From Synergistales bacterium (lineage in GTDB: Bacteria > Synergistota > Synergistia > Synergistales > JAFGMB01): 64,000 nucleotides of DNA. Below are positions 35,074 through 58,497 of this stretch, one piece after another (positions within the stretch are counted from its first letter, which is position 1; every line of letters begins with the position of its first letter). Both the position numbers and the translations under genes were made by a program. The stretch lies in assembly GCA_963666205.1 (NCBI GenBank), contig OY762654.1, positions 1,792,001 through 1,856,000 of the forward strand, in the 5' to 3' direction. Below the pieces are notes generated by a model. It ran no database searches and was not told where the DNA came from. It saw nothing but the letters and a program-made list of their open reading frames with translations.

Positions 35074-35097
35074 GGTAGTTCACCTCTAAATCCACCT

Positions 35098-36566: not shown

Positions 36567-36743
36567 TCTTTTACACCTCCTGAGAATTATTACAAAAATC
36601 TTTTTCATACAGGAATCTGATCAGACCATTCCTCATTGGCCAGCCGTTCCTGCGATAAAACCGCTTCTCCTCTATGATTCTGCAACAAATAAAGCACCTT
36701 TACTCACTACCACCTCCTAAACGCTATATGGACTCCAATTGTT

Positions 36744-41050: not shown

Positions 41051-41060
41051 ATTAACTATC

Positions 41061-41807
41061 TCATCCTCTCCGTTTTTCAATGTTGAAATCACATACCAGG
41101 GGCAGATGATCCGAGAGATGCACCCTTGGGATCTCCATAGTCTCTATCTTCACCTCTTTACTGGTAAGGAGGTAATCCAGCCTCAGTTTAGGCATGCGGC
41201 TCGGGAAAGTTGGTCTGGCAATGGTATCAGCATCCCTTAATCCTGTGGTTATTGTCAGAGGGTTGAGTTCGGAATGACCATGGAGAAGGTTGAAGTCTCC
41301 CCCGAGAAGGACAGGTTTTGATAAGACCTTACATCGGCCTGCTATTTCCTGAAGCTGGGTCTTTCGTGCCCTTTTCCCGAGGGAGAGATGGGCAAGAATA
41401 ACATGAAATTCGGTAAATTCAACCTCAAGGTATGTGTTCTTGATACCCCTGGAAAAGTGATGCTCTTTCGATGAAAGAATGGGCAGTCCGGAAAGAACTG
41501 CATTTCCATGAGAAGAGAGTATAGGCAGATAGTTCAGAGGAGATTTAGTCCCGTACTTATTGGAGAAGGTGTGTTCCCATCCTTTAAGAGAAGCCAGGTG
41601 ACGGGCCTGGCAGTGTTTTCTGTGACGATATGATCCCCCGTCCACCTCCAGAAGACATACGATATCTGCTTGCAGGGAATCGAGAAACTCGGCTATTCGC
41701 CTTATTCTTGTGGTCGAAAAACGGAAGAAACCGGAGAAAGGAAAGGGGAAGTGGTAATTCCAGTCGCTCCCCGTGCCATAACGGATATTATAAAAAACGA
41801 TCCTCAT
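41061..41807 (-). CDS. Endonuclease/exonuclease/phosphatase family protein (YbhP-like)
   Basis: YNI, EVD, GNAVLS, HLS, GDFN, LDY, SDHLP. Confidence 0.9.
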   Translation of the reverse strand: MRIVFYNIRYGTGSDWNYHFPFPFSGFFRFSTTRIRRIAEFLDSLQADIVCLLEVDGGSYRHRKHCQARHLASLKGWEHTFSNKYGTKSPLNYLPILSSHGNAVLSGLPILSSKEHHFSRGIKNTYLEVEFTEFHVILAHLSLGKRARKTQLQEIAGRCKVLSKPVLLGGDFNLLHGHSELNPLTITTGLRDADTIARPTFPSRMPKLRLDYLLTSKEVKIETMEIPRVHLSDHLPLVCDFNIEKRRG

Positions 41808-41949
41808 ATTATTTGCCCTTTCCACATCTACAGATATGCATCCAGGTCATTCGTCATCTTTGTAAAGTATGCAGTCTTATCTGTAATATGACAAGATATT
41901 TGTCTTGAGAAAGGACAGATTCTCCCCGGAATTGAATAAAATTAAGAAT

Positions 41950-43137
41950 TTATTCGTTTCCCCATCTTCGAAGGATAATAATAACGTTAAAAAAAGGAAA
42001 GATCAGTACAATAGAAAAGGCATAAAGAAGCCCCTGGCGGTCTACTACCATCCCCACAAGGGTCATCATCAACCCGCTGAGACCGAAGGCGACTCCCATT
42101 AGAAGAGATGTAGCTGTACTTTTTGATCCGGGAGCAAGTTCCTGTGCCCTGGCAACTAAAAGAGGAGAAGATGAAACCAGTAGTGCGTTTCCAAGCATGA
42201 ACAGAATAAAGGGAATCCAGCCTTCGTAGAACAGCTCAGGGAAAAGCAGCAGGGGTGACATACCCTGGGCGAAGAGTAATACCCTTCTTTTGCCGTAGAT
42301 AAGGGCGGCCTTACCGGCCAGAAGAGGAGACATAACCTTTGCCAGCTGAACGAAAAAAAGTGTTAAACCTACCTTTTCTATACCTCCGCCTCTGAGCACG
42401 ACCAGGAGGGGCAGAAGGAACTTTATTCCGTGATTGGTTATGTCCCTGAGAAATGTAACGGTCCATACGGGCCAGATATCATGAAGGATATCCCTCACTA
42501 TTTTCAGGAAGTTTTTGGATTTTCCAGGTTTATCGATCTTGCCTTTGATAGAGGGGATCAGTATCCAGAACAGAATACCAGTTGCGGTTACAGGTATTAT
42601 CGGGAAAAGATTCAAAGGCAGATCTCTGAAGTGCTTGAAAAGAAAAGCTGCATATAGGGGGCTTAGGGAGCTTCCGAGTATTCCCACCATGCTGAAAAAG
42701 GCCAGTTGCAGGGGTATCTTCTCAATATTTCCAATATATCCTACAGACCCGTGTCCCTGGGGATGAAAAACAGCGCTTCCCAGCCCCCAGATGGAGACAA
42801 GAAGCAGGGCTGTCCCATAGGATGGAGAAGATGGGATAAGCGAAGCACCAAGGGCCGTCAGGACAGGACCCCAGACTATCATAAAAGGGCGGGAACTTGC
42901 ATCCGAAATAAAGCCCAATAATGGTTGAAGGAACATATTGAACAGCCCTGGCAGGGATGTAAGGATACCCGCTTGAGTTACTGAAATACCAAGGTTTTCG
43001 ATCAGAAAGGGTAGAAAGGTCTGCAGAAAAGCTGTATGCAGGTCATTCAGAAAATGCTGAAGGTAAATTAATGAAAGTTTTCTTTGAGTGCCAGGGATAA
43101 CGTTTTGAGAACTGATCAATATGGTCTCCTTGTTCAT
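41950..43137 (-). CDS. MFS transporter (Fsr-like)
   Basis: HFLND, QPLLGFISD, GSAVFHP; about 12 TM. Confidence 0.88.
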   Translation of the reverse strand: MNKETILISSQNVIPGTQRKLSLIYLQHFLNDLHTAFLQTFLPFLIENLGISVTQAGILTSLPGLFNMFLQPLLGFISDASSRPFMIVWGPVLTALGASLIPSSPSYGTALLLVSIWGLGSAVFHPQGHGSVGYIGNIEKIPLQLAFFSMVGILGSSLSPLYAAFLFKHFRDLPLNLFPIIPVTATGILFWILIPSIKGKIDKPGKSKNFLKIVRDILHDIWPVWTVTFLRDITNHGIKFLLPLLVVLRGGGIEKVGLTLFFVQLAKVMSPLLAGKAALIYGKRRVLLFAQGMSPLLLFPELFYEGWIPFILFMLGNALLVSSSPLLVARAQELAPGSKSTATSLLMGVAFGLSGLMMTLVGMVVDRQGLLYAFSIVLIFPFFNVIIILRRWGNE

Positions 43138-43161
43138 AGGTTTTCAGAAGGTGTTGTGAAA

Positions 43162-44346
43162 TTAACTAATGCAGTCCTTTTTAATGGCTTTACTGATCCT
43201 TGTGAGACCTTCTGTTAACGTCGACCTGGGAGTTGCAATGGTCAACCTGGCAAATCCCTCTGTTACCTTGCCGAATTCTGCTCCTCTATTCATTCCTACC
43301 CTTGCTTCATGGACCAGAAAGTCCTGCAGTTTTTCTGAAGACAATCCCAGTTTTCTGAAATCTATAAGAGGGACATATGTGCCTTCAGGTTTTATGAGGT
43401 TTATCCCGGGCATATTCTTTTTCAGAAATTTTTCGGTAAAATTCAGGTTTTCTTCCAGATATTCAATCAATTCTTTCAGCCACTCTTCACCGGAACCGTA
43501 GGCAGCAGCAATTGCTTCCGAACCAAAGACGGTGACCCCTGCAAGGTGCATGCCCGAGATAAGGCTGTTGTATCGTTCCCGGAGATGTTCATCAGGGATA
43601 ACTACTATGGCCGACCGAAATCCGGCAAGGTTGAAAGTCTTGCTGGGTGAAAAACTTGTTATCGTTCTATTTCCGATATCCTCTGAAAGACTTGCTATTG
43701 GGATATGTTTATTCCCTCCATATATGATATCGGAATGAACCTCATCCGATACAATGATGATGTTCTTTTCAAGGCAGATTTCAGCCAGTTCTGTCAGTTC
43801 TTTTTCCCGCCAGACCCTGCCTGAAGGATTATGGGGATTACAGAGGAATAACATCCTTACCCCGGAATCCAGTTTATCTCTCAGGTCATCGAGGTCCATG
43901 GTAAAACGTCCATCATTGAGAACCAAGGTATTATCAACGATCCTTCGGCCATTCTCTTCAATGATATGGTAGAAAGGAGAGTAGATCGGAGACTGTATCA
44001 TGATCCTGTCTCCCGGTCTTGTAAGAGCAAGCATGGAAAAGACAAGGGAAGGTGTTACTCCTGGAGAGTGGCAGATCCATTCTTTCTCTATCTTCCAGCC
44101 ATGGCGGCGCATCATCCAGGAGATTATTACATCATAAAAATCGTCCGGCCTGTTAGGATACCCGAAAATACCATGATCAAGCCTTTTCTGGAGCCGTTCT
44201 ATCACCTCAGGGGGAGCCTGAAAATCCATATCCGCCTTCCACAGGGCCAGAATATCAGGATCACCGAACACTTTTCCGAGATTATCCCATTTCTGACAGG
44301 CCGTATTCTTTCTGTTTATAATCCTGTCAAAGTTGTATTTCCTCAT
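43162..44346 (-). CDS. patB: MalY/PatB family PLP-dependent C-S lyase
   Basis: KWD, ADMDF, HGIFGY, LCNPHNPSGRVW, SDEVHSD, SPSKTFNLAG. Confidence 0.9.
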   Translation of the reverse strand: MRKYNFDRIINRKNTACQKWDNLGKVFGDPDILALWKADMDFQAPPEVIERLQKRLDHGIFGYPNRPDDFYDVIISWMMRRHGWKIEKEWICHSPGVTPSLVFSMLALTRPGDRIMIQSPIYSPFYHIIEENGRRIVDNTLVLNDGRFTMDLDDLRDKLDSGVRMLFLCNPHNPSGRVWREKELTELAEICLEKNIIIVSDEVHSDIIYGGNKHIPIASLSEDIGNRTITSFSPSKTFNLAGFRSAIVVIPDEHLRERYNSLISGMHLAGVTVFGSEAIAAAYGSGEEWLKELIEYLEENLNFTEKFLKKNMPGINLIKPEGTYVPLIDFRKLGLSSEKLQDFLVHEARVGMNRGAEFGKVTEGFARLTIATPRSTLTEGLTRISKAIKKDCIS

Positions 44347-44385
44347 AAACGGTGTCCCCCTTTCACAGTAATATCAATTTCTATA

Positions 44386-45762
44386 TCAATTTAAGAATTC
44401 AGTATCGCTGACACACTGTTTCCTGGAAAGAGCTATGACCGCATCAACCTGTTCAGCTGATTTGCCTATATGCTTGGTGTAGTCCATAACTGAATCAAGT
44501 TCTTCTTTTGTTAAATTTGCGCCTATTTCGGGATCTTCCAGAAGGAGTTCTCTGAATGTCTTATTGCCGGTGTTGGCCGCAAGTATGGCATCCCGGATCA
44601 GGTGATGGGCAGTCTGCTTTCCCATTTTTTCCCCGAGATGGAACATTAGGGCTTCTGAAAAGAGCATTCCGTGGAGCATGTCCAGATTCTCGCTTATCCT
44701 GGGTTCATTAATATCGAGACCTTCAACGACAACAGTACATGCCTGCAGGGCTTTTGCCATCATGATGCTGCTTTCGGGGATGGAATGCCAGTCAAGTCTC
44801 CAGCTCCGGGTGTCCCTCTCGTGTTCAGCTATCATTCCCTGAAGGCCAAGGCTGGCATTATTCATTATCACCCTGGTCATGGCTACTACGAATTCAGATG
44901 TTTCGGCATTCCTCTTATGGGGCATGGTGCTGCTGCCGACATAGTGTTTGCCCAGAGGTTCCTGAAGTTCAAGGATCTCTGTTCTGCTCAACTGGTAGAT
45001 CTCATTCGCAATTCTCCCTATAGTTCCGGCAATAATGCCGAGGAGGGACTGGTATTCTGCAAAGTTATCCCTGGAACTTCCCCATCCGGTAACGGGGACT
45101 TCAAGGGCTAATCTCTCCATGACACCCTCTATAATTGGGTAGGCCTTTTCTCCCAGACCGGCCATGGTTCCTGTTCCGCCATGAAGCATTCCCACGAACA
45201 GCCTTTGACTGGTATCCTTCATCCGTTCAATATCCCGTCTGACCTCTGCGGCCCAGCCGGCGAACTTGAGTCCGAGTGTTATGGGCAGACCCTGCTGGTT
45301 ATGGGTCCTGCCTGCCATGGGGAAGGCCTTGTATCGATCTGCCAGTTCCAGAATTGCCTTTTCAAGTCTGCAGAGATCTCTGAAAATGATACGGAAGGCA
45401 TCCTTTATCTCAAGGACCATTCCTGTATCCTCTATATCCTGGGTAGTTGGTCCGTAATGAATATATTCACCTAGGGAACCATCGCATATCTTCTGTACTG
45501 CACGAAGAAGGGGGACCAGGGAGTGTCCTGTCTGGGCGAGACCTTCCTTCACAAAATCCAGGTCCAGAAGTTCCACTTTGGCTTTTTTTGCGATCTCATC
45601 AGCTGCTTCTGAAGGAATTATTCCAAGCCCTGCCTGGACTTCTGCCAGTACGATCTCGATATCCAGCCATCTCTGGTATCTTTTCCTGTCGGAAAAGACA
45701 TTGCGCATCTCCTCCGTGCCCCATCCATTTTTATAAAATTCCGAATCAATAATATGTGCCAT
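44386..45762 (-). CDS. Adenylosuccinate lyase-family (aspartase/fumarase superfamily) lyase, probably not housekeeping PurB
   Basis: HYGPTTQDI, GRTH, GSSTMPHKRN signature loop; embedded in a catabolic operon. Confidence 0.85.
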   Translation of the reverse strand: MAHIIDSEFYKNGWGTEEMRNVFSDRKRYQRWLDIEIVLAEVQAGLGIIPSEAADEIAKKAKVELLDLDFVKEGLAQTGHSLVPLLRAVQKICDGSLGEYIHYGPTTQDIEDTGMVLEIKDAFRIIFRDLCRLEKAILELADRYKAFPMAGRTHNQQGLPITLGLKFAGWAAEVRRDIERMKDTSQRLFVGMLHGGTGTMAGLGEKAYPIIEGVMERLALEVPVTGWGSSRDNFAEYQSLLGIIAGTIGRIANEIYQLSRTEILELQEPLGKHYVGSSTMPHKRNAETSEFVVAMTRVIMNNASLGLQGMIAEHERDTRSWRLDWHSIPESSIMMAKALQACTVVVEGLDINEPRISENLDMLHGMLFSEALMFHLGEKMGKQTAHHLIRDAILAANTGNKTFRELLLEDPEIGANLTKEELDSVMDYTKHIGKSAEQVDAVIALSRKQCVSDTEFLN

Positions 45763-45795
45763 TTTTACAACTCCTCCATGTACTTGTTTTTCTTT

Positions 45796-47160
45796 TTACA
45801 GGATGCCTGAAACTTCAGGCATGTATAGTCCTTTGTAGGTTCTCATCTGATCCAGGGTGTAGATCCGGTTCAGGATCCTTTCCCTTTCTTCTTTTTCAAG
45901 GATTTGAGAGGTGAGTTCCGTAAACTTGTCAGTCATGGAAGTCTTGTCCATTGGGTTCTCGGGGTCACCTTTCCTGAATCGGTTCTCAGCGCTCAGGACA
46001 GTTCCATCCTTGAGAGTTACCGAGATACCACAGGGTCTGCAGGCGGGGAAGAGTCTGTCCAGCTCCGGATCGAATATGAGTTCTATTTTTGACATAAGAT
46101 CCCTGATAACAGGGTCCTGGAGATCCTTCTCCGAAAGATTGGTAAAGGTTATATCCTTTTTTGTAATAAGGGCGGCCATGCAGAAGGGATTGCTGAATTT
46201 AGCCTCTTCAAAGGAAGAGGGGTCTGTAATTCCAGCTACATCGATGGCTTTCTGGTAAACCCTTGCTTCGATCTTTTCTATTTCTTCGGGTATCAGGTCA
46301 TGGGTTTCCATGATCTTTTTCACTGCATCTATCATGCTATGGGTCTGGCCGCAGGTGGGATATCCCTTGAAATTAACTTCATCGACCTTGAAATGCGAAC
46401 CCAGTCTGTCTGCCAGGTATAAAAGGTCATAACTTGGAGATACTGACCTGCAGAATCCTTTTTCGCCTTCAAAAATATGTTCCGGCCCCTCGATTCCCTG
46501 GGAAGCAAGTTCAGCGGCGATAATACCGTTAAAAACCGCTTTGCCCGGATGGAAGGCTTTTGCCATAACTGCACCATCAAGAAGAAACTGCCAGAGACCG
46601 GCAGCCTGGGTCCCGGTATGTCCAAGGGTCCAGACGATCTCCTCTTCGCTCAGTTTCAGCATTTTTGCAGCAGCAGCAGCAGCGCCGAAAGTTCCGGCTG
46701 TCGCCGTAGTGTGCCATATGGAGTAATGGTCCTTGCCAAGACATTCTCCTACCCTGATGGCCAGATCATACGCGCAGACAGCGGCCTCGATCATCTCTTT
46801 TCCGGAGGAAGAGAGTTTTTCCGCATAGGCAAAAACCACAGGAAGGACAACTGTTCCAATGTGCATTATGGACATCCTGTGACCGTCATCAACTTCGGTT
46901 ATATGGCCCAGGCATGCATTCGCAAAGGCTGCCCAGGGAAGGGTGGTCTTTTTCCCGGAACCGATGATGGTGCTGTATCCTTCCCCGCCCATTCTGGAAG
47001 CAAAATCCAGGTATGATGTGGAAAGGTCATTCGTATATGAATTGTAGACTGCAGCAAGCCAGTCGGTAAAACAGTGCTCTGTTTTAAGTATTGTATTTTC
47101 AGGTAGTTTATCTAATTCCAGGCTTGAAATATATCTTGCAAACTGTCGGGAATAACTCAT
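45796..47160 (-). CDS. MmgE/PrpD family protein
   Basis: HITEVDDGH, WHTT, KAFHPG, EGEKGF, KGYPTC…H, AKFS, KGDPENP. Confidence 0.9.
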   Translation of the reverse strand: MSYSRQFARYISSLELDKLPENTILKTEHCFTDWLAAVYNSYTNDLSTSYLDFASRMGGEGYSTIIGSGKKTTLPWAAFANACLGHITEVDDGHRMSIMHIGTVVLPVVFAYAEKLSSSGKEMIEAAVCAYDLAIRVGECLGKDHYSIWHTTATAGTFGAAAAAAKMLKLSEEEIVWTLGHTGTQAAGLWQFLLDGAVMAKAFHPGKAVFNGIIAAELASQGIEGPEHIFEGEKGFCRSVSPSYDLLYLADRLGSHFKVDEVNFKGYPTCGQTHSMIDAVKKIMETHDLIPEEIEKIEARVYQKAIDVAGITDPSSFEEAKFSNPFCMAALITKKDITFTNLSEKDLQDPVIRDLMSKIELIFDPELDRLFPACRPCGISVTLKDGTVLSAENRFRKGDPENPMDKTSMTDKFTELTSQILEKEERERILNRIYTLDQMRTYKGLYMPEVSGIL

Positions 47161-47176
47161 TTTGATCTCTATCCCT

Positions 47177-48559
47177 TTAACCTGGAAAGACCATTTTTTC
47201 GGGCTTCAGGTATTTATTGAATTCTTCTTCCGTCATATAGCCAAGGGCCATAGCAGATTCCTTCAGGGTGGAACCTTCCTTATGGGCTTTTTTGGCAATC
47301 TCTGCTGCCCTGTCATAGCCGATGTGAGGGGTCAGTGCAGTTACGAGCATGAGTGATTCATTAAGGTATTTCTCAATTCTGTTCCTGTCAGCTTCTATTC
47401 CCCTGACTGCATTTTTCTCGAAGGAAGCCATTACATCAGTGAGCAGGCGACATGACTGAAGGAAGTTGTAAATGATCACAGGCATGAATACATTGAGCTC
47501 GAAGTTGCCCTGGCTGGCAGCCATACCGATAGCTGCATCGTTACCCATTACCTGGACCGAAACCATTGTTACGGCTTCGCACTGGGTGGGATTTACCTTT
47601 CCAGGCATGATGGAACTGCCCGGTTCGTTGGCTGGTATGGTTATCTCCCCAAGTCCGCAGCGGGGTCCGGAGGCAAGCCAGCGGACATCGTTAGCGATCT
47701 TCATGAGGTCAGCAGCGAGTGCCTTCAGGGCTCCATGGGCAAAGACCATCTCATCCTTGCTTGTCAGGGAATGGAACTTGTTGGGAGCCGTTCGGAACTG
47801 TTTCCCAGTCAGTTCAGAAATTTCTCCGGCTACGGATGTACCGAATTCAGGATGGGAATTCAGACCGGTTCCCACGGCTGTTCCACCAAGGGCAAGATCT
47901 TTCAGGAAATCCACACTGTTAAGGATCATTTCCCTGCTTCTCTCCAGCATCCTTACCCAGCCGCTGATCTCCTGACCAAGGGTCAGAGGGGTCGCATCCT
48001 GCAGGTGTGTCCTTCCTGTCTTTATGATGTCCGAAAATTCCAGGGACTTGTCCTGAAATGTTTTCAGGAGCCTGTCAAGAGAGGGGAGCAGTTCATCCTC
48101 AATCACCATTACAGCGGCCAGGTGCATGGCTGTTGGAAAGGTATCGTTGGAACTCTGGGATCTGTTCACATGATCATTCGGATGGATCTGGAGATCATTT
48201 TCACATATTTCCGAAGCTCTTCTGGAAAGGACTTCGTTCATGTTCATGTTTGACTGGGTACCGCTGCCCGTCTGCCATACTGCCAGGGGGAAATTGCCAT
48301 CCAGCTTTCCTTCCAGAACTTCATCAGCAGCCCTGCATATGGCATCAGCCCTTGCCTCATCGACAAGACCAAGGGACGCATTAGCTTTTGCCGCAGCTTT
48401 TTTTAGAATTGCAAAGGCCCGGATGACCTCATGAGGCATTTTTTCAATACCTATTTCGAAATTCTGCAGACTTCTCTGGGTCTGGGCTCCCCATAATTTA
48501 TCCGAAGGTACCCTGATTTCTCCCATGGAATCCTTCTCAATTCTGTAATTACCTTCCAA
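47177..48559 (-). CDS. fumC: Fumarate hydratase class II
   Basis: [49 protein letters not shown]. Confidence 0.97.
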
Positions 48560-48586
48560 AATAAGTCCCTCCTTCAGATATTATCT

Positions 48587-49774
48587 TCAGATCCGTGCTG
48601 TACCAGTTTTTCTTGCGGCTTCCGCAACAGCTCTGGCAACGGCAGGGACAACCCTTTCGTCAAGGGCTCCCGGAATAATATATTCGGCATTGAGTTCTTC
48701 ATCAGAGACGAGTTCGGCAAGGGCCTTTGATGCAGCAAGTTTCATTTCCTCGTTTATATCAGAAGCTCTGACATCGAGGGTTCCCCTGAAAATACCCGGG
48801 AATCCGAGGCAGTTGTTGATCTGATTGGGGAAATCGCTTCTTCCGGTCGCAATAACCGCAGCTCCGGCTTCCTTTGCATCTTCAGGGAAAATCTCTGGTG
48901 TGGGATTAGCCATGGCGAAGATAATCGGTTTTTCTGCCATTTCTTTGACCATTTCTGTTGTCAGAAGACCGGGGGCAGAAATTCCGAGGAACACATCCGC
49001 TCCCTTCAGAACATCGGCAAGAGAACCTTTAAGCCTGTGGGGGTTCGTTTCCCGGGCGATTTCTTCCTTTGCCCAGTTCATGTTCTCTTCTCTTCCATCG
49101 TAAAGGGCTCCGGCCCTGTCACAGAGAACGACATCCTTCGCACCGGCGGACATGAGGAATTTACAGATGGCAGTACCGGCAGCTCCAGCCCCGCTCATTA
49201 TGATCCTGCAGTCCTCGATCTTCTTGCCAACTATTTTCAGAGCATTCCACAAGCCTGCCAGGACGATAACCGCTGTGCCATGCTGGTCATCATGAAAAAC
49301 AGGAATATTGGAAATTTCCTTGAGTTTCCTCTCTATCTCGAAACATCTTGGTGCTGCAATATCCTCCAGGTTTATTCCGCCGAAGGAAGAAGTAATAAGG
49401 CTGGAGATCTCCACGATCTTGTCTGGTTCCTGTGAGTCAATACATATCGGGAAGGCATCTATTCCTGCAAAACGCTTGAATAGGACGCACTTGCCCTCCA
49501 TTACAGGCAGAGAGGCGTCTGCTCCTATATTGCCCAGTCCCAGGACTGCGCTTCCATCGCTTATTACTGCCACCATGTTGGCCTTTGATGTAACTTCGTA
49601 AACTGCTTCAGGCCGGTTATGTATCTCCCGGCATGGCTCTGCCACTCCCGGAGTGTAGGCTATTGAAAGATCGTGCATGGTTTCAACGGACATTCTGGAT
49701 TCAACTGAAAGTTTACCCTTACTTTTCACATGAGCTTCAAGAGCTTCCTTGAAGATGGCTTCTTTTTTAGCCAA
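48587..49774 (-). CDS. NAD(P)-dependent malic enzyme
   Basis: AYTPGVAEPC, PVMEGK, NLEDI, FHDDQHGTA, GAGAAG, ATGRSDFPNQINN. Confidence 0.95.
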   Translation of the reverse strand: MAKKEAIFKEALEAHVKSKGKLSVESRMSVETMHDLSIAYTPGVAEPCREIHNRPEAVYEVTSKANMVAVISDGSAVLGLGNIGADASLPVMEGKCVLFKRFAGIDAFPICIDSQEPDKIVEISSLITSSFGGINLEDIAAPRCFEIERKLKEISNIPVFHDDQHGTAVIVLAGLWNALKIVGKKIEDCRIIMSGAGAAGTAICKFLMSAGAKDVVLCDRAGALYDGREENMNWAKEEIARETNPHRLKGSLADVLKGADVFLGISAPGLLTTEMVKEMAEKPIIFAMANPTPEIFPEDAKEAGAAVIATGRSDFPNQINNCLGFPGIFRGTLDVRASDINEEMKLAASKALAELVSDEELNAEYIIPGALDERVVPAVARAVAEAARKTGTARI

Positions 49775-49797
49775 GGTATTTCATCTCCCTTATATAT

Positions 49798-51291
49798 TTA
49801 TCGAACCCTGTGCCACACGAATTTGATCACGGGTGCAAGGGCAAAAAGCGCTGCTGCGACAAGCATAACCAGGCTTATGGGTCTCTGCAGAAAGATAAGG
49901 AAAGATCCCTTCGAAAGGACCAGACTCTGGTAGAGACCTCTTTCCATCATTGAACCAAGGACCATGGCCAGGATGAGGGGTGAATGGGGCAGATCCAGTT
50001 TATTGAAAATGTAACCCACCACACCAAAGAAAAGCATAACCCAGATATTGAAAATGCTGTTTCCTACAGCAAAGGCTCCGGTAACGCAAAGAAGGGCTAT
50101 GACTCCTGACAGTACAGCTCGAGGGATTTTGAAAATAACTCCGGAAAGGAATTTCCCGAGCATAATTCCGAGGGGTCCCATTATCAGGTTAGCAACAAAA
50201 AAGCCCACAATGATCAGGTAGGCTATATCTGGAGAATTCTGGAAAAGAGAAGGTCCTGGCCTTAATCCCTGTATCATAAGGGCACCAAGGAAAAGAGCCG
50301 ATGTGGAATTGCCGGGAACACCCAGGGAGAGCAGTGGTACCATGGAACTTGCTACAACAGCATTATTGGCGGCTTCTGGAGCAGCCACACCCTCGGGAAT
50401 TCCCGTTCCGAATTTCTTGTCTTTGTTGGAACGGACAGCCTGGTCGTAGGCAAAATAGATGGCCATGATCATTCCTGCACCTGGTATGACTCCAATGATA
50501 TTGCCTATGGCTGAAGATTTGATCCAGGTGGGCATAAGCCTTTTCACCATCTGTCTGTTCGGGAGGACCCTTGTGATCTTTGGAATAGGTCCTTCTGCGG
50601 CAAGGTTTGCTCCAACGGTTTTGATGGATTCAGCCACTTCAAGGACAGAGGTAACGCCAAAAAGGCCTATAAGCATGGGGATGAAGGGTATCCCTTCAAG
50701 GAGATAGGGGTTCTCGAAGTAGAAACGGGGGTATCCCGTCTGGGGGCTCATTCCTATGGTGGAGATCAGAAGGCCGATGGCGCAGACGATAAGACTTTTT
50801 AGAACCTTGTTGCCCGACATCCCTGCTACTGTACTGAGGCCAAGAATTGCCAGGGCAAAATATTCGGGAGGGCCGAATTTAAGGGCATAACTTGCAAGAA
50901 CAGGAGCAAGGAACATTAATATGAGAGAGCTTGTCAAACCTCCGAATACAGAACTGGTGGTTGATATGCCAAGGGCCAGTCCTGCTTCACCCTTCTGAGT
51001 CATGGGATAACCATCCAGAGTCGTTACGACGGAAGAAGCGGTACCTGGTATCTTTAATAGTATGGCCGGTATCGACCCCCCGTAACAGGCGGAACAATAA
51101 ACACCTACCAGCAGAGCGAAGGCCTGCTGAGGCTCCATGGAAAAGGTTACAGGAATGAGAACGGCCAGGGTGATAGTGTCATTGAGGCCTGGCAGTGAAC
51201 CTACTATCAGGCCGAGGACCACCCCGAAGAATAGAAAAGCGAACACTGATGGATGCAAAAGATCCAGAAATGCGCCGAGGATGTGCTCCAT
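49798..51291 (-). CDS. tctA: TTT large membrane subunit TctA
   Basis: GSLPGL, DGYPM, FGPPEYF, PEAANNA, LGVPG. Confidence 0.92.
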   Translation of the reverse strand: MEHILGAFLDLLHPSVFAFLFFGVVLGLIVGSLPGLNDTITLAVLIPVTFSMEPQQAFALLVGVYCSACYGGSIPAILLKIPGTASSVVTTLDGYPMTQKGEAGLALGISTTSSVFGGLTSSLILMFLAPVLASYALKFGPPEYFALAILGLSTVAGMSGNKVLKSLIVCAIGLLISTIGMSPQTGYPRFYFENPYLLEGIPFIPMLIGLFGVTSVLEVAESIKTVGANLAAEGPIPKITRVLPNRQMVKRLMPTWIKSSAIGNIIGVIPGAGMIMAIYFAYDQAVRSNKDKKFGTGIPEGVAAPEAANNAVVASSMVPLLSLGVPGNSTSALFLGALMIQGLRPGPSLFQNSPDIAYLIIVGFFVANLIMGPLGIMLGKFLSGVIFKIPRAVLSGVIALLCVTGAFAVGNSIFNIWVMLFFGVVGYIFNKLDLPHSPLILAMVLGSMMERGLYQSLVLSKGSFLIFLQRPISLVMLVAAALFALAPVIKFVWHRVR

Positions 51292-51389
51292 TTATAAATC
51301 CTCCTAGAGATCAGAATTAATTCGTAAAATCTTTTTCCCGAATATGGAGAAAAAGTAATTCTCTCGATTATTAAAGGTTTGCTTAAGAG

Positions 51390-51836
51390 CTAACCTTCCA
51401 GGAACAGACCTGGAGGCAAAGGAACCCCCAGCACTATTTTGAATGCAACATAAACTGCCAGTACACATCCTGCTGTGGTAAGAACCAGCGCCACTTTTTT
51501 TGAAAAACCGAGAAAGGATATAAGGAATAAAAGAAGTAAGAAAGACGAAACAAGATATCCTGCATATTTTAATGCAATGGTGTATACTCCTATCCCTGCC
51601 ACCACAATAAATACACCCTTCATTGAGGAAAAATCAGTTTCCTTTTCAGCATCTGTAACTCTCGTTACTACTATCGATTTGATAAGCAGAGCAAGAGAAA
51701 GCCCCCCAAGAACCAAAGCAAGTCTTGTGGGGAAATGTGACGCTATATCTGGATATTCCTTGGAAACAATAAATGTAGAAAGACTTATAACCAGTAACGT
51801 TACTGCTAAAATAGAATCTTTCAGCCAGTTTTTCAT
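51390..51836 (-). CDS. tctB: TTT small membrane subunit TctB
   Basis: Hydrophobic, FP and GY motifs, C-terminal LGVPLPPG. Confidence 0.85.
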   Translation of the reverse strand: MKNWLKDSILAVTLLVISLSTFIVSKEYPDIASHFPTRLALVLGGLSLALLIKSIVVTRVTDAEKETDFSSMKGVFIVVAGIGVYTIALKYAGYLVSSFLLLLFLISFLGFSKKVALVLTTAGCVLAVYVAFKIVLGVPLPPGLFLEG

Positions 51837-51920
51837 CTCTAAACCCCCGAAAAATCAAAAGATCACAAAAAAGAGAAGTGGACCCTGAATTTTCAAGGTC
51901 CACAATATTAAATACTGGAA

Positions 51921-52874
51921 CTAGTTCTTATTCAGAGTTGGGATTACTTTCTGCAGGTCTTCGGCTACAATCTCTACGTATGCAGCGAAATCAGCACCAT
52001 TACGGTAAACGACGGGGAATCCTGCCTTTTCCATACTGGCTGCATAGTCAGGGTCAGCTATTATGTCCTTGAATATTTTATCAAGGGCCTGAACTGTTTC
52101 ATCGGGGGTGTCGCCAGGAACGGCAAGACCTCTGAAGGCGCCCCATTCAAGATCAAAACCAGCTTCCTTGAAAGTGGGGACTTCTGGTACATTGGGATCT
52201 CTTTCAGCAACTGCAACTGCGAGTGCCCTTAGAGTACCATCTTTCACATAACTTGTAGCTTCTCCCATTGCCATCATACCCGCATCCACATGTCCGCCAA
52301 GGAGCTGCTGAAGCTGCATGGCGGCACTCTCGTTGTGGACATAGCCGAATTTGACTCCAAGTTTGGATTCCATAATAAGAGATGCAATGTGATGGGAGGT
52401 GGAATATCCTGGAGTAGCTACACTGAGTTCCTTTTCTTTTGCCGCATTGATCAGATCCTCCAGAGTTTTGTAGGGGGAATCGGCCGGAACCATAAGGATC
52501 TCGGGGTCGAAACAGTACATGGCTATGGTCTTGAAGGACTTATGGGTATAGGTTGTTTTTTTGGTCATAGGATTGGAAACAACGGAAGAAGTATACGCAA
52601 GGATAGTGTATCCGTCCGGTTTGGCCTTTGATACAAAAGTGTGGCCGATGACTGCTCCGCCTCCGGGCATATTCTCAACGATGATCTTCTTGTCTCCAAG
52701 ATATTTAGGAGCCACTTCTGCGAGCATCCTGCATGTTGTGTCAACTCCGCCGCCTGGTGCAAAGGGAACGATTATTTTAAGGTTCTTTTCCGGGAAAGTA
52801 CCCGCAAAAGCTCCTGCAGTACCAACTAACACCAGACACATAACCGCGATAATACCGATAACTGTTTTCCTCAT
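51921..52874 (-). CDS. tctC: TTT substrate-binding protein TctC
   Basis: Signal peptide; VPFAPGGGVD, ENMPGGG, PDGYT, PEVPT; start ATG 52874 after AGGAG. Confidence 0.92.
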   Translation of the reverse strand: MRKTVIGIIAVMCLVLVGTAGAFAGTFPEKNLKIIVPFAPGGGVDTTCRMLAEVAPKYLGDKKIIVENMPGGGAVIGHTFVSKAKPDGYTILAYTSSVVSNPMTKKTTYTHKSFKTIAMYCFDPEILMVPADSPYKTLEDLINAAKEKELSVATPGYSTSHHIASLIMESKLGVKFGYVHNESAAMQLQQLLGGHVDAGMMAMGEATSYVKDGTLRALAVAVAERDPNVPEVPTFKEAGFDLEWGAFRGLAVPGDTPDETVQALDKIFKDIIADPDYAASMEKAGFPVVYRNGADFAAYVEIVAEDLQKVIPTLNKN

Positions 52875-52947
52875 TTTTCTATCTCCTCTCGATTTTGTCT
52901 TTATTTTTTGTAACTTATTGCACATCTGAATAGAATTACAAAGGATC

Positions 52948-54246
52948 CTATTCGAACCTTTTCTTTATGAAATCAATGATGATACTGTCAACCCCGGTCA
53001 TTCCTTCCACATTGATGGAAGCAGCGTTTGCCACGGTCTTCTCTATGGTATCGTCCACCACTCCCTGGGGTCCGTTCAGGCCATTGCCTCCCATCACGAT
53101 CATGGCCGCATGGTAGGATTCAAGGGCTCCCGTCCCTACCTTCAGGGCACAGGTCTCCTTCGCTCCGTCACATACCATCCCTACAAGGTTCCCCAGTACC
53201 ATCTCCACTGCCTTCTCTGCCTTTGCTATGTCTTTACTCAGAAGATAGACGATCCCCGATGCCGCTCCTGCTCCTGCAGCTACGCTGCATCCGCATACGG
53301 GGCTGAGTCTGCCCATCCTGCTCTTTATGAAGGATGTGGTGAGGTGGCTGAAGGCTATGGCTTTCGCTATCTCTTCCCTGCTCTTGCCATAATGATCTCC
53401 TGCTACGTATACGGGAAGGATGGCGGTGATCCCGTGGTTGCCGCTTCCGGCACTGCTCATAACGGGATAGGGTGCTCCGTCCATTCGTGCGTCGGAGGCT
53501 GCCGCCGCCACTGCCTTGATCCTGCTGCTCAGGTCATCGGAGTCGTAATGCTCACCTGCCAGTTTCTTTATGGTGGATCCGAGGTTGATGCCTACGTTGT
53601 GAGTGAATCCGTATTCGGCTATGGTGAGGTTCATGTCCACTCCGTTCATGACGTAGTCCACGTCCTCTGCGTCCATGTCCTCAGCCATACTGACCAGCTC
53701 CGAGTAGTTCATCCTTTCCACCTGCTCGGGGATGGATAGGGTCTTACTGCCGTTCTTGTCCTCTGTCCCTTTTTCTGTTTCAAATATGACCCTGTCGTTG
53801 AGGGTAACCTTCGTTATATTGGTGTGGGTGCTCTCTATGACCGTCACTGCTGTGTCATTTTCACTGCTCACCCTGGATTCCACATATACTCCGTGGCGGT
53901 CAAGGTCGGGGATTATGACCACCTTCCCTGAATCCACCATGGCCTGGGACTTTTTCACAGTATCGGCATCGCAGTCCTTGAGAACTTCAAGGCCGTATTC
54001 CGACTTTCCCTGAAGGGCTGCCATGGCTGCTGCTATGTCGTTGCCCTTGAGGCCTCCTGTACCTGGAATACCTACGTACATGCCGTTCTTGTATATGCTG
54101 TCGCTTACCACTACCTCGATCTCTTTAACGGGGGCCCCTCCAAGTTCCTCTACGGCCCTCGCTACGCCCAGTGCCACCGCACCGGGCTCAGTACATCCCA
54201 ATGCAGGCTTCACTTCCGATCTCAAAAATTCCCTGATTGTAAACAA
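52948..54246 (-). CDS. cyuA: L-cysteine desulfidase family protein (CyuA/YhaM/CdsB), copy 2
   Basis: Same motifs as copy 1; TTG start after GGAGG. Confidence 0.85.
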   Translation of the reverse strand: MFTIREFLRSEVKPALGCTEPGAVALGVARAVEELGGAPVKEIEVVVSDSIYKNGMYVGIPGTGGLKGNDIAAAMAALQGKSEYGLEVLKDCDADTVKKSQAMVDSGKVVIIPDLDRHGVYVESRVSSENDTAVTVIESTHTNITKVTLNDRVIFETEKGTEDKNGSKTLSIPEQVERMNYSELVSMAEDMDAEDVDYVMNGVDMNLTIAEYGFTHNVGINLGSTIKKLAGEHYDSDDLSSRIKAVAAAASDARMDGAPYPVMSSAGSGNHGITAILPVYVAGDHYGKSREEIAKAIAFSHLTTSFIKSRMGRLSPVCGCSVAAGAGAASGIVYLLSKDIAKAEKAVEMVLGNLVGMVCDGAKETCALKVGTGALESYHAAMIVMGGNGLNGPQGVVDDTIEKTVANAASINVEGMTGVDSIIIDFIKKRFE

Positions 54247-54279
54247 GATATATACCTCCAGTATCTATTCATATGTTGA

Positions 54280-54957
54280 TCAGTTTCCGTTATTTGTTAT
54301 CTTGTTCAGGTATCTGTAGATGGAGTTCTCTGAAGTTTCAAGAAGACTTGCCACTTCGCCCAGTGCACCTCGGAGAAGGAAGACTCCCCTTGAATTAAGT
54401 TTCTCTACAATATCCATTTTTTCGTCGGGAGTCATTCTTGAAGGAGGAACAGGGGAACCATGGATAGTATCCTTGATGATGGAATGGGTCAGGTCCTCTA
54501 TGGAATTATCTTCTTCCTCGGCAAGGATGACCGGCTGTGGTTCCTGCTGAATCCTTACTCCAGGTCCGAGAACGTATTCGTCCAGAAGTTCTTTGAGTTC
54601 TGAAAATCTGGTCAGGTCCATGTTCAGGCAGAGAAGACCGATAAGATCTCCATCTTCATCTTTAATCAGGTAAGACGCAGTTTTACGCTTTCTTCCCTTC
54701 TCATCGGATACTATCCTAGATTTAATGAAATCTGCAGAAGGGTTTTCCTGTTCACGAAAAAATCTCCCCAGATTCTTTAAGGGATCTCCTATGGTTCTTC
54801 CACTGATGTGATTGTTCTCTATGGCGACTATGGATTTCTCTATATTTCTCACATCGTGGAGGACTACTTCACAGTTATAACCAAGGAAACGGGCTAGAAA
54901 TTTCACCAGGGGAACATATGCCTGAAGTTTTTTATTAATTTCCTGGTCAGTCTTCAT
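54280..54957 (-). CDS. YheO/DauR-like regulator (PAS-like plus HTH)
   Basis: CEVVLHD…SIVAI.N.HISGR..G, LCLNMD, GVFLLRGA..VA..L…SIYRYL. Confidence 0.9.
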   Translation of the reverse strand: MKTDQEINKKLQAYVPLVKFLARFLGYNCEVVLHDVRNIEKSIVAIENNHISGRTIGDPLKNLGRFFREQENPSADFIKSRIVSDEKGRKRKTASYLIKDEDGDLIGLLCLNMDLTRFSELKELLDEYVLGPGVRIQQEPQPVILAEEEDNSIEDLTHSIIKDTIHGSPVPPSRMTPDEKMDIVEKLNSRGVFLLRGALGEVASLLETSENSIYRYLNKITNNGN

Positions 54958-55185
54958 GAGCATTCCTCCAAAAATTAGAATTATTGCAAACGTAGAGATA
55001 AAAATATATTTTTATGGTAATAAGAAATTTTTATAACCTTGATAATAAACTTTTACCACAAAAAAATATTTTTACAAGGGGAAAATATTTGTATTATGTA
55101 TTCGACTATTAGAAATGGAGAAAAATCAGGTTGATCTTGTGAGAGTGCAAATCCCAACCCGGTATAGAAGGGGGTACATATTTCC

Positions 55186-55222
55186 AAAGGAGCTGTGAAG
55201 AATGATTTATCTTCACAGCTCC
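55186..55222 (-). terminator. Terminator of TRAP operon
   Basis: Perfect 13-bp IR GGAGCTGTGAAGA…TCTTCACAGCTCC with short T tail on minus strand. Confidence 0.7.
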
Positions 55223-55278
55223 AGAAAGAATGTTGGACAGATTCAGCGTTCAGGCAGTAATAGAAGGATGTTGTCCCT

Positions 55279-56562
55279 TTACTTGACCATTTCCGGGAGA
55301 TACATGATTACAGAAGGGAATATAATAGCCATAAACAGGGAGATAACAGCTATAAGAACGATTGGAAGTACTGCCCTGCTGCTTTTAGCCAGATCCACAT
55401 TTCCAACTCCCGAGGCAACGAAAAGACAGGTTCCCACGGGAGGAGTGAGGGCTCCAATACAGATATTAAGAACCAGGAGCACTCCAAAATAGATAGGATC
55501 GATCCCCGCTATTTTTATCAGGGGAAGAGCTACCGGACTTATTAGAACCAGAATAGAAACTGCGTCGATAAAGCAGCCGAGGAAAAGGATGAAAATATTC
55601 AACAGGATCAGGATGATTAGGGGATTCTTTGAAACAGACAACAGTGATCTCGTTATGGTCTGAGGTATCTGCTGACTTGTCAGAACCCAGCTTAGAAATG
55701 AAGCAACCGCTATTATGAACATTACCGAGGAAGTATTTCGAGCAGCTCGGGCAAAAACTTCAGGGATGTCTTTCCATTTCAACTCACCATAGATAAATTT
55801 ACCTACCAGAAAAGCATAGACAGCAGCAACCACAGAAGATTCGGTTGCAGTGAAAATTCCGCTCAGGATGCCGCCAAGTATTATCACTGGCATTAGAAAT
55901 GCAAGGAAGCCTTTCTGAAAAGTCCTTAGGAGCTTTTCAAAACTGAAGGATGATGTTTCCCTGGGATAATCGTGACGAAGGGCTTCGTAATATGAGTATG
56001 CCATCAGGAAGAGCCCGAAGGTTATACCTGGAATAACCCCCCCAAGAAATAGTTTGGCTACAGAAACATTTGCTATCACGGCATAAATAACCATGGGGAT
56101 ACTCGGCGGAATTATGGGGCCGATTGCCCCTCCTGCCGCAATAAGTGCTGCGGCGAAACCTTCCCTGTATCCTTTTTCCCTCATGGAAGGTATCAGAAGA
56201 GAACCCACTGCAGCAGTATCTGCGACAGCCGAACCACTCAAGCCCGCAAAAAGCATGGATAAGACAACAGCAACCTGGGCAAGACCGCCTCTCATCCGGC
56301 CAACCAGGGCAAATGAAAATTCCATGAGTCTTCTGGAAATACCTCCTGCTTCCATGAGTGTTCCCGCAAGCATAAAGAAAGGAACAGCAAGAAGGGAGAA
56401 ATGGTCTACTCCCTGGTACATAACGTGGCCAAGAAGTACGGGATTGAAAATGCCCTGTACTGATGCGATGAGAACACCTGTCAGTCCGAGGGCTATGGCA
56501 ATTGGCATCCCGAAAATTACAGTAAGAAAAAACAGGATGAAATACAGGATGATCTGGAGCAT
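55279..56562 (-). CDS. dctM: TRAP transporter large permease DctM
   Basis: LLAVPFF, SGSAVAD, GPIIPPSIP, TATES, LTPPVG. Confidence 0.93.
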   Translation of the reverse strand: MLQIILYFILFFLTVIFGMPIAIALGLTGVLIASVQGIFNPVLLGHVMYQGVDHFSLLAVPFFMLAGTLMEAGGISRRLMEFSFALVGRMRGGLAQVAVVLSMLFAGLSGSAVADTAAVGSLLIPSMREKGYREGFAAALIAAGGAIGPIIPPSIPMVIYAVIANVSVAKLFLGGVIPGITFGLFLMAYSYYEALRHDYPRETSSFSFEKLLRTFQKGFLAFLMPVIILGGILSGIFTATESSVVAAVYAFLVGKFIYGELKWKDIPEVFARAARNTSSVMFIIAVASFLSWVLTSQQIPQTITRSLLSVSKNPLIILILLNIFILFLGCFIDAVSILVLISPVALPLIKIAGIDPIYFGVLLVLNICIGALTPPVGTCLFVASGVGNVDLAKSSRAVLPIVLIAVISLFMAIIFPSVIMYLPEMVK

Positions 56563-57060
56563 TTAGGCATCCTCCGCTGTTCTAGTCCAGTTGTGAATAA
56601 GGCGTTCAATAATAACGATAATAGCAAGTATTCCTGATACAGGGATCACCATGTAGATCATGCCCATGGGTACATTTATGGAAGTGGCCATCTGCATCAT
56701 CTGTCTTTTAACCAGGGGTATGCTTCCCTTGGACAGGTAATAAAAAAACAGTATGTAGCTTGCTGAAATAAATAAAGACATGAACCTGGATCTCCAGCCT
56801 TTTAGTCTTGAAAGAAACAGATTGAAGGATGTCATTCCTGATCTGTATATCAGGGTTGGTACTCCGGCAAAAACGACCCATGTAAAGAGAAAGCGCGAAA
56901 GTTCCTCGCTCCATGGAATGGAAAAATCAAGCAGATATCGGCAGAAAACCTGGGCAAAGGTGGCTGTGGTCATGATCAGAAGAAAAAAGAAAAGCATGTA
57001 TGTGGATATCTTGTCTATTGCAAAAGCTGTCCTGGAAAGGGCTTTTTGAAAAAATTGCAT
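56563..57060 (-). CDS. dctQ: TRAP transporter small permease DctQ
   Basis: QVFCRY…WSEELSR…W; 4 TM. Confidence 0.9.
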   Translation of the reverse strand: MQFFQKALSRTAFAIDKISTYMLFFFLLIMTTATFAQVFCRYLLDFSIPWSEELSRFLFTWVVFAGVPTLIYRSGMTSFNLFLSRLKGWRSRFMSLFISASYILFFYYLSKGSIPLVKRQMMQMATSINVPMGMIYMVIPVSGILAIIVIIERLIHNWTRTAEDA

Positions 57061-57145
57061 TGATGAAGGTCCTCCCATATCAGAAAACTGACAGGGGAAA
57101 GAAAGAACTTCTTTCCCCTGTATATCTTCATTTTAGCTGTTAAGT

Positions 57146-58138: not shown

Positions 58139-58170
58139 GAAAAACACCCCTTTGGAAAATATTGTTTTCT

Positions 58171-58213
58171 TATAATAATCAGATATCGTATCCGATATCT
58201 GATTATTATATCA
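58171..58213 (-). promoter_or_regulatory. Perfect 18-bp inverted repeat overlapping an extended -10 upstream of dctP
   Basis: TATAATAATCAGATATCG-TATC-CGATATCTGATTATTATA; the minus strand reads TGATATAAT. Confidence 0.7.
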
Positions 58214-58497
58214 TTTGTTCCAGATTATTTAATACCCCTTCAGGATAATGACTAAGCTAATTCAAGACGAAATAGTTCCATATTTCTCTCCAGAAATAAT
58301 ATGAGATCCTGGTGGTATGCAGGATAAGTAATGAGAATATCTGTAAATGTGCACTCCTGATTTCAGAATGTATCTCTGGAGCCTGGTCGATGCAGAATCG
58401 CAGATCAGGAATGGTTCAGGTTTGCCCTTTTTTCGATGTAGAGGCATAATTAACGATTGTGTTCACTATTGTATTGCGTGGATGGGGAGGTTTTTAT

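Follow-up and report, generated by a model that had tools for sequence, protein, structure and literature searches.

The DNA analysed here (the window) is a stretch of 64,000 nucleotides (nt) from a Synergistales bacterium (NCBI GenBank assembly GCA_963666205.1, contig OY762654.1, positions 1,792,001 to 1,856,000 of the forward strand), and is part of a single contig of 2,948,783 bp. The analysis concerns an unbroken row of 11 open reading frames (ORFs) on the minus strand, running from position 54963 down to 41950, which a sequence-only reading had proposed to be an anaerobic operon for the catabolism of S-(2-succino)cysteine (2SC). Calculated from the listed ORF ends, the intergenic gaps in operon order were 33, 22, 84, 98, 23, 27, 16, 33, 39 and 24 nt, and the description of 11 co-oriented genes with short gaps was borne out (41950–54963, gaps of 16–98 nt). 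Family calls were made by Pfam and NCBIfam profile searches of the operon and flanking proteins; these searches, together with an alignment of the CyuA protein, returned for each of the 11 genes the family that the sequence-only reading had named. Its statement that the locus encodes no GNAT acetyltransferase and no oxygenase also agreed with the Pfam results, which showed neither among the 11 genes or the flanking genes.

The first gene encodes a YheO-family transcription regulator with PAS_6 and HTH_22 domains (54280–54963; PF08348 115.4 bits, PF13309 67.8 bits) and is followed by a predicted CyuA-type [4Fe-4S] L-cysteine desulfidase (52948–54246; Pfam SDH_alpha and the CyuA alignment). The next three genes encode the solute-binding protein TctC (51921–52925; PF03401 172.7 bits), the small membrane subunit TctB (51390–51836; PF07331 59.2 bits) and the large membrane subunit TctA (49798–51291; PF01970 497.2 bits), together a complete tripartite tricarboxylate transporter (TTT) set by Pfam, and a hairpin (51903–51878) lies after tctC. 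These are followed by a short NAD(P) malic enzyme (48587–49774; PF00390 and PF03949), which matched only positions 10–407 of the 764-position NADP-malic-enzyme model NF009501 and so lacks a PTA domain, and by the class II fumarase FumC (47177–48559; TIGR00979, 764.6 bits against a cut-off of 664.75). The remaining genes, likewise on the minus strand, encode an MmgE/PrpD-family protein resembling iminodisuccinate (IDS) epimerase (45796–47160; both domains, PF03972 and PF19305), an adenylosuccinate lyase (ASL)-family lyase (44386–45762; PF00206 (Lyase_1) 145.3 bits, PF10397 (ADSL_C) 68.6 bits), a PatB-family pyridoxal phosphate (PLP) C-S beta-lyase (43162–44346; TIGR04350, 477.9 bits against a cut-off of 340) and an MFS transporter (41950–43137; PF07690 80.1 bits).

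The SDH_alpha protein aligned over its full length with CyuA of Escherichia coli K-12, a Fe-S cysteine desulfidase (34% identity, 144/424, E 2e-76, residues 8–430), and only locally with the serine deaminase TdcG (23%). Cys18, Cys318, Cys359 and Cys366 aligned with cysteines of the E. coli protein, and on this alignment the window protein is assigned to the CyuA (UPF0597) family. The partner of CyuA in E. coli is the cysteine importer cyuP, whereas in the window cysteine would arise inside the cell through the lyase. A second cyuA copy was found at 12620–13916, with 98.7% DNA identity over exactly the 1297 nt of the ORF, which points to a recent duplication or gene conversion. This copy is the last of a plus-strand row (9768–13917) that begins with an ArgE/DapE-family deacylase (TIGR01910, 249.5 against 217.6 bits) and a fused L-serine dehydratase, possibly an N-acyl-serine/cysteine catabolic cluster. 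The position of a 98.7% copy beside a serine dehydratase and a deacylase argues that the operon CyuA is a general cysteine desulfidase rather than a specialised paralog.

A search of the PDB with the MmgE/PrpD protein (hereafter PrpD) returned IDS epimerase (2hp3/2hp0, E 1.2e-36) as the best solved relative, followed by Bacillus subtilis 'IRG1' (7bra). The score on the PrpD equivalog model was 59 bits against a cut-off of 950, and the protein is thus not a 2-methylcitrate dehydratase. His86, Glu89, His100, Tyr146, His150, Lys201 and Lys265 occupy positions like those of the dicarboxylate/acid-base set described in PMC12290011, a correspondence by position only. According to the available text of that paper, the family includes two characterised C2 epimerases of 2-substituted succinates, its known substrates all share a 1,4-dicarboxylate unit, and the function of the B. 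subtilis homolog is undetermined.

The lyase shows class I lyase/adenylosuccinate-lyase fold domains and the GSSxMPxKxN catalytic loop, as in S-(2-succino) lyase (2SL; Hillmann 2022). This loop reads GSSTMPHKRNAE from residue 276 onward and includes Glu287. The nearest NCBIfam models were NF006500 (484 bits) and XcbD (481.7 bits over the full length, cut-off 600), and both scores were under the respective cut-offs. Identity was 40% to a Pectobacterium member of the gamma 2SL-type clade, 37.9% to XcbD of pXAUT01 and 30% to the PurB-like gene of the same genome. The lyase and PrpD genes are both single-copy in the genome.

The lyase clade and conservation of the cluster

To collect related loci, an alignment of lyase homologs was run against a single genome of each species; 101 stretches matched, 90 were confirmed and 80 were kept. 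L091, added to these, comes from a complete genome of a different Synergistota family. Trees were constructed from 95 lyases and, by a quick posterior mean site frequency (PMSF) search, from 45 rows. In both trees the window lyase fell within a clade that takes in 18 loci (19 rows) and has an SH-like approximate likelihood ratio (SH-aLRT) support of 99. Three alphaproteobacterial lyases (L009, L010 and L080), 54–57% identical to that of the window (L080 54%), form a clade nested inside this CyuA-linked clade. The Pectobacteriaceae/Pasteurellaceae clade, used as a proxy for the assayed 2SLs, was 40–41% identical and occupied a separate branch; the trees thus place the window lyase outside the gamma 2SL-type clade. 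A Pasteurellaceae lyase (L064) was 77–78% identical to Pectobacteriaceae proteins, and among the 120 matches listed for it this family was represented by Pectobacterium, Brenneria and Samsonia only, with no Dickeya. The two characterised 2SLs, E0SKP1 of Dickeya dadantii and E6LDH5 of Enterococcus italicus, presumably belong to the gamma 2SL-type clade.

The lyase is rare within the Synergistota: 9 of 268 genomes gave a match at E <= 1e-100, and in six of these, including the genome of the window, the identity was at least 74%. Copies in Desulfovibrionaceae and Spirochaetaceae were 69–72% identical to that of the window, which suggests that the cluster moves horizontally among anaerobes. One Desulfovibrionaceae locus (L008, 7292–10013) holds a tandem pair of lyase paralogs that share 60% and 52% identity with the window lyase and are preceded by YheO-CyuA-RidA-TctCBA-PrpD; the pair may represent two substrate or stereoisomer specificities. 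A lyase-family gene of 45.9% identity was also found on an E. coli plasmid (NZ_CP069439.1, 8201–9522), where the match fell into four pieces and the gene may be disrupted.

Gene presence in the 18 clade loci was scored by tblastn with the window proteins. The PrpD gene adjoined the lyase in 17 of them and was missing from L007, in which a transposase follows the cluster. TctA and TctC were found in 12 of the 18 loci (TctC homologs 38–90% identical; TctA 49–98% in related loci), and CyuA and a YheO homolog in 10 each. Three of the eight loci without CyuA (L001, L003 and L014) are contigs ending before the corresponding position. Where present, the CyuA homologs were 62%, 39–42% or 32% identical to that of the window and stood at differing positions in the locus. 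Loci from the Desulfovibrionaceae (L004–L008), Desulfohalobiaceae (L012, L013) and Spirochaetaceae (L031) combined the lyase with CyuA, with PrpD except in L007, and for the most part with YheO and the TTT, which was replaced by a TAXI-TRAP system in L006 and by Dpp/Opp-type peptide ABC components in L012. The NC10 locus L011 likewise has such ABC components in place of the TTT. The order in L091 was YheO-RidA-TctC-TctB-TctA-malic enzyme-FumC-PrpD-lyase-CyuA-DUF1847, with a divergent PatB gene. The gene neighbourhoods, which the sequence-only reading had put forward as a check, therefore show a core of lyase, PrpD and CyuA, joined by TTT and YheO, that recurs in anaerobes across phyla; because this combination recurs in other phyla, the arrangement in the window is more than chance.

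FumC, malic enzyme, PatB and MFS, which the sequence-only reading had counted with the other genes, lie outside this core and proved to be accessory. FumC stands at the same position in L001 and L091 and is missing from the operon of L014, a relative of the same genus. A class I fumarase takes the place of FumC in L031, in L069 (a partial Treponema locus) and in L021, a Bacillota locus outside the clade (lyase 44%) that combines PrpD, lyase, class I fumarase and malic enzyme. Malic enzyme is part of the operon in the window, L014 and L091, and partially in L001, and the MFS gene was found in the clade loci L001 and L014 only. The PatB gene belongs to the operon in just three cases (the window, L001 and L014), whereas L002, L091 and L011 have it close by or divergently oriented; L011, from NC10, has a PatB-like gene and a more distant class I/II aminotransferase-fold gene that abuts the lyase. 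As sinks for cysteine or its 2-aminoacrylate intermediate, RidA was found in L004, L008, L012 and L091, and the gene after the lyase in L009 encodes a PALP enzyme. Differing, non-orthologous enzymes have thus been recruited repeatedly for both products, CyuA and RidA on one side and fumarase and malic enzyme on the other, and this gives the strongest argument for fumarate and cysteine as the products of the lyase. In L014 (9821–13451) the operon is followed by enolase-superfamily (MR/MLE), argininosuccinate-lyase-like and GntR/UTRA genes that are absent from the window.

Relation to published 2SC loci and to XcbD

In the available text of PMC9706529 the published 2SC routes proceed by acetylation, breakdown and deacetylation; this scheme is still termed a conserved strategy in the accessible part of a 2025 paper (PMC12757645), and a 2026 preprint, as far as its text was available, states that only two 2SC pathways are known. 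The 2SL yxe/scm loci of Enterococcus italicus and Dickeya dadantii (Hillmann et al. 2022, PMC9706529, available text) share with the window operon the lyase family, a YxeQ-type MmgE/PrpD partner and a dedicated importer, and the predicted chemistry is the same, a beta-elimination of the cysteine thiol from the succino adduct to give fumarate. They carry GNAT, M20 and an ABC importer, whereas the window operon has a TTT and neither GNAT nor M20, and they salvage sulfur, whereas the window operon is proposed to burn the products through CyuA, FumC and malic enzyme. The yxe/scm locus of B. subtilis, on the available text of PMC9706529 and PMC12757645, has in common with the window operon the 2SC target, the MmgE/PrpD gene YxeQ and an importer of its own. 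It differs in its YxeK/ScmK monooxygenase, which is O2-dependent and converts the adduct to oxaloacetate and N-acetylcysteine, and in its need for acetylation and deacetylation; the genes for these steps are absent from the window operon.

The alphaproteobacterial members, lying in yxe-like loci, tie the clade of the window lyase to the published 2SC route. The order in Chelativorans (L080) is TctCBA-lyase-M20 amidohydrolase (TIGR01891)-PrpD-GNAT-rhodanese-Sulf_transp, and in L009 and L010 it is PrpD-M20-TctCBA-lyase; by gene content these appear to be the yxe/scm layout that defines 2SL, with a TTT in place of the ABC importer. The canonical published layout itself was seen in L064 (lyase 41%), as lyase-GNAT-ABC transporter-PrpD-M20. 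No GNAT was found in L009 or L010 by tblastn with the L080 GNAT or by Pfam on four L009 ORFs, one of which, of 156 amino acids (aa), had no Pfam match. L080, L009 and L010 all carry an M20 gene, while neither a YxeL-type GNAT nor a YxeP-type M20 is present in the window operon or its flanks. Of the acetylation-breakdown-deacetylation set the operon encodes breakdown alone, together with the YxeQ-type gene, and the nearest L080 M20 match is found 40 kb beyond the window. Gene maps and Pfam likewise showed neither GNAT nor M20 in the contiguous anaerobic clusters; to this extent the proposed lack of acetylation genes stood. One anaerobic relative, L006, carries an AstE/AspA-type deacylase in its cluster.

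The absence of these genes has to be set against the possibility that the same chemistry acts on an N-acylated or peptide-bound form, either N-acetyl-2SC (a mercapturate) or succinated Cys-Gly or glutathione fragments, the lyase freeing N-acetylcysteine or a peptide and unlinked amidohydrolases then freeing cysteine for CyuA. The characterised 2SLs show a strong preference for N-acetyl-2SC and act on 2SC only to a minor extent (PMC9706529, available text), and the genome contains at least 15 M20 amidohydrolase paralogs, 32–41% identical to the L080 enzyme. The ArgE/DapE deacylase directly upstream of the serine dehydratase gene (sdaA) and the second cyuA of the window, the deacylase of L006 and the peptide ABC components that replace the TTT in L011 and L012 point in the same direction. 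Against these stand the other anaerobic clusters, which carry no deacylase or GNAT, and the orthologous TTT common to the alphaproteobacterial loci. In the GNAT-bearing L080 import would come before acetylation, so that what is taken up there is presumably not acetylated.

A further point against an N-acylated substrate came from Glu287. Residues were compared between 18 anaerobic-type lyases, 3 alphaproteobacterial yxe-like lyases, 8 gamma 2SL-type lyases and XcbD, and 10 positions were invariant in the anaerobic type and different in both acetylation-linked groups, one of them in the catalytic loop. The loop is GSSTMPHKRN[AP]E in the anaerobic type, with Glu at this marker in 18/18, and ends in KRNAV in the yxe-like lyases (Val, 3/3) and in KRNPA in the gamma 2SL-type lyases (Ala, 8/8). 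XcbD, which adds free L-cysteine to sulfoacrylate (PMC9457059, available text), has KRNPE; Glu is thus common to the window lyase and this free-cysteine enzyme and is lost in both acetylation-linked clades. The marker was Ala in 120/120 gamma-type database homologs among the matches listed, and among homologs of the window lyase it was Val in four named Alphaproteobacteria and Glu in the named anaerobes. Val or Ile occurs in CMLE, Tad1 and the genome's own PurB, whose substrates carry no free amino group at this place, and Val in the uncharacterised 3c8t. The pattern lends weak support to a substrate with a free amino group, and an N-acylated or peptide-bound substrate is considered unlikely.

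The lyase-PrpD pair may alternatively act on another 2-substituted succinate, such as an IDS-type N-succino amino acid, mercaptosuccinate or the adduct of another thiol, with CyuA and RidA serving the released amino acid or a separate cysteine pool. In the degradation of IDS by Agrobacterium tumefaciens BY6 (PDB 2HP0/2HP3) an MmgE/PrpD epimerase and a fumarate-releasing lyase together render all stereoisomers usable. That system involves a C-N bond, a synthetic chelator and an aerobe, whereas the partners encoded in the window operon point to a C-S adduct. The IDS epimerase was reportedly paired with the C-N lyase by Cokesa and colleagues in 2004. It is this epimerase that is the nearest solved relative of PrpD; in addition, the ASL family mostly cleaves N-succino bonds, and 2SLs are promiscuous toward small thiols (PMC9706529, available text). 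The partners that recur are nevertheless sulfur-specific, namely CyuA in 10/18 loci, PatB, rhodanese and Sulf_transp in L080 and a weak ATC_hydrolase-like match in L005 (36 bits), and the alphaproteobacterial sister loci fit the published 2SC layout. EDDS lyase, a structure of which is presumably held in the PDB, was not among the PDB matches of the lyase at E <= 1e-20. A literature search on mercaptosuccinate, fumarate and lyase found, in the portions of the sources that were available, no anaerobic lyase route. A substrate other than a cysteine adduct is considered unlikely.

XcbD and XcbE of bacterial coenzyme M synthesis provide a different comparison, as XcbD is also an ASL-family protein, joins free L-cysteine to an activated acrylate and is followed by a PLP enzyme (PMC9457059, available text). 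Identity to the window lyase (37.9%) and the Glu after KRNP are points of likeness; XcbD is biosynthetic, has sulfoacrylate as its substrate and xcbB/xcbC as neighbours, and the window lyase scores 481.7 bits on its model against the cut-off of 600. By analogy the operon could run in the synthetic direction, the lyase adding cysteine to fumarate and PatB cleaving the adduct to mercaptosuccinate. The full-length match to the XcbD model is compatible with this, as are the published 2SL equilibrium, which lies far toward the adduct (PMC9706529, available text), and the PLP C-S lyase or aminotransferase-class gene that abuts the lyase in the window, L001, L014 and L011. The importer, CyuA, RidA, fumarase and malic enzyme of the window and related loci are all catabolic, though, and PatB is missing from most clade loci. 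Pfam and NCBIfam detected no phosphosulfolactate synthase among the operon genes and no xcbB/xcbC-like genes among the 11 genes and their flanks. A synthetic role is regarded as very improbable.

Genome context and flanking genes

Two more TTT systems lie in the window, at 24032–26998 (plus strand) and 33556–36608 (minus strand), with TctC 35–36% and TctA 47–49% identical to those of the operon, and the region is an island of organic-acid uptake genes. Accessory genes of the operon also have modular paralogs elsewhere in the genome, in two regions (~987,600–992,200 and 1,105,100–1,109,200); among them are two MFS paralogs (43%) that come after a second, possibly broken PatB-like gene (51% over 232 residues).

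The operon could alternatively be a composite with no single substrate, in which a C4-dicarboxylate/tricarboxylate fermentation module (TTT, malic enzyme, FumC) and a cysteine or cysteine-conjugate module (CyuA, PatB, MFS) are by chance co-transcribed with an orphan lyase-PrpD pair. FumC is single-copy, and searches of the genome with FumC and class I queries detected no other fumarase, class I included. A malic enzyme paralog of 79% identity stands beside a TRAP system elsewhere in the genome, PatB and MFS have their paralogous cluster, cyuA is a recent duplicate, and organic-acid transporters are concentrated in the region, the window having three TTT systems. This explanation conflicts with the finding that lyase, PrpD, TTT, CyuA and YheO stay together in three phyla, in loci without malic enzyme, FumC, PatB or MFS, and that non-orthologous fumarases have been recruited to the same cluster. 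A composite of this kind is judged improbable.

The operon is flanked downstream by genes for an EEP nuclease/phosphatase and cardiolipin synthase, and upstream, on the same strand and after a gap of 315 nt, by a DctPQM TRAP system (55279–58147, minus strand). This TRAP system and a TauE/SafE sulfite-exporter-family gene beyond it (58459–59286, plus strand) were considered as parts of the operon and dropped, neither being kept beside the cluster in related loci. A strong hairpin (57121–57091) follows dctP of the TRAP system, and a 40-nt palindrome with an 18-bp stem and a 4-nt loop (58171–58210), which looks like an operator, lies between dctP (57146–58147, minus strand) and the divergent TauE/SafE gene. 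A promoter scan of 41000–59000 was uninformative, with 17 sites against 26.5 expected, and a terminator scan of the same region showed no clear terminator at the operon end. At 16103–19531 (plus strand) an octopine/nopaline-dehydrogenase-family gene, a sodium:solute symporter and a GntR/FCD regulator stand in a row, possibly forming an opine-type catabolic unit, here in an anaerobe.

Metatranscriptomic RNA contigs from four libraries of two studies matched parts of nine of the 11 operon genes at 90–100% identity (MFS, lyase, PrpD, FumC, malic enzyme, TctA, TctC, CyuA and YheO), while several stretches of the operon were left uncovered in at least one RNA run. These matches hint that close relatives transcribe the operon region.

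A proposed route for free 2SC

We interpret the operon as encoding a pathway, induced by its substrate, through which an anaerobic, amino-acid-fermenting member of the Synergistota catabolises free 2SC, a proposal to which we give slightly better than even chances; that the substrate is succinated cysteine in some form is probable. The YheO-type protein would be the effector-responsive regulator of the operon, and TctCBA would import 2SC, a tricarboxylate amino acid, with TctC as the 2SC receptor. Non-enzymatic addition is expected to give a mixture of 2SC diastereomers, and the PrpD protein would interconvert the two succinyl-C2 diastereomers that arise by this Michael addition. An action of PrpD on the succino part of the adduct is proposed because its gene accompanies the lyase with or without acetylation genes, and the monooxygenase in B. 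subtilis. The available text of PMC9706529 makes no mention of 2SC stereoisomers, and a literature search on 2SC diastereomers likewise gave nothing relevant.

The lyase would then split 2SC into L-cysteine and fumarate. FumC would convert fumarate to malate and malic enzyme would convert malate to pyruvate and CO2, while CyuA would convert cysteine to pyruvate, NH3 and H2S. PatB, as an extra C-S lyase, appears accessory and may be either a second sink for cysteine or cysteine conjugates or a direct route from 2SC to mercaptosuccinate, pyruvate and NH3. Pyruvate can yield ATP, since the genome encodes a PFOR-type frame of 1188 aa as well as an acetate kinase (536 bits), and it would be converted to acetate through these enzymes. 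The co-encoded sinks for both products would pull cleavage forward, which makes mechanistic sense given that the published equilibrium favours the adduct.

Several observations weigh against this interpretation. The substrate is assigned from gene context; the lyase falls under the cut-offs of its two nearest NCBIfam models and is only ~40% identical to the gamma 2SL-type clade, whose own link to the characterised E0SKP1 and E6LDH5 is presumed. To the preference of characterised 2SLs for N-acetyl-2SC and the deacylase of the L006 cluster can be added the ArgE/DapE deacylase that adjoins the second cyuA in the window, 40 kb from the operon. L007 is without PrpD and L002 without CyuA, and FumC, malic enzyme, PatB and MFS are missing from most related loci, being confined to the Synergistota except for PatB, which also occurs near the NC10 locus. 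FumC, as the only fumarase detected in the genome, could be a housekeeping enzyme. Glu at the marker is the majority residue (68/95) among the wider, mostly uncharacterised lyases, including those of Actinomycetota, and is therefore ancestral rather than clade-specific; the value of the marker derives from two independent losses of Glu and one characterised free-cysteine enzyme. The RNA contigs are short, none spans two genes, the libraries may hold DNA, and cyuA is duplicated.

With these points taken into account, the sequence-only reading is the best available explanation of the operon, supported by comparative genomics and short of proof. A broader proposal, that anaerobes of at least three phyla grow on 2SC without acetylation, PrpD acting as a 2SC epimerase, Glu selecting the free alpha-amino group and CyuA with fumarase/malic enzyme pulling the equilibrium, is made more tentatively, its chances being put somewhat below even. 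A literature search found no CyuA-linked, anaerobic or acetylation-free 2SC route; supplements were outside its scope, and Fig. 1C and the tables of PMC9706529 may list such loci.

The published 2SC routes have been presented as damage control or sulfur salvage, both with acetylation and deacetylation. If the proposal is correct, the operon would represent a third route, independent of O2 and free of acetylation, in which both halves of the molecule are dissimilated to pyruvate, and 2SC would be a nutrient in anoxic habitats and not just a lesion. The YxeQ-type MmgE/PrpD proteins, present in each version of the pathway, would gain a testable function as succinyl-C2 epimerases, and the long-unknown function of B. 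subtilis YxeQ would be assigned as that of a 2SC epimerase. Glu as opposed to Val or Ala after KRN[PA] would mark lyases for free and for N-acetylated substrates respectively; hundreds of genes labelled 'adenylosuccinate lyase family' could be annotated with this marker. The operon would also provide enzymes to cleave or make free 2SC.

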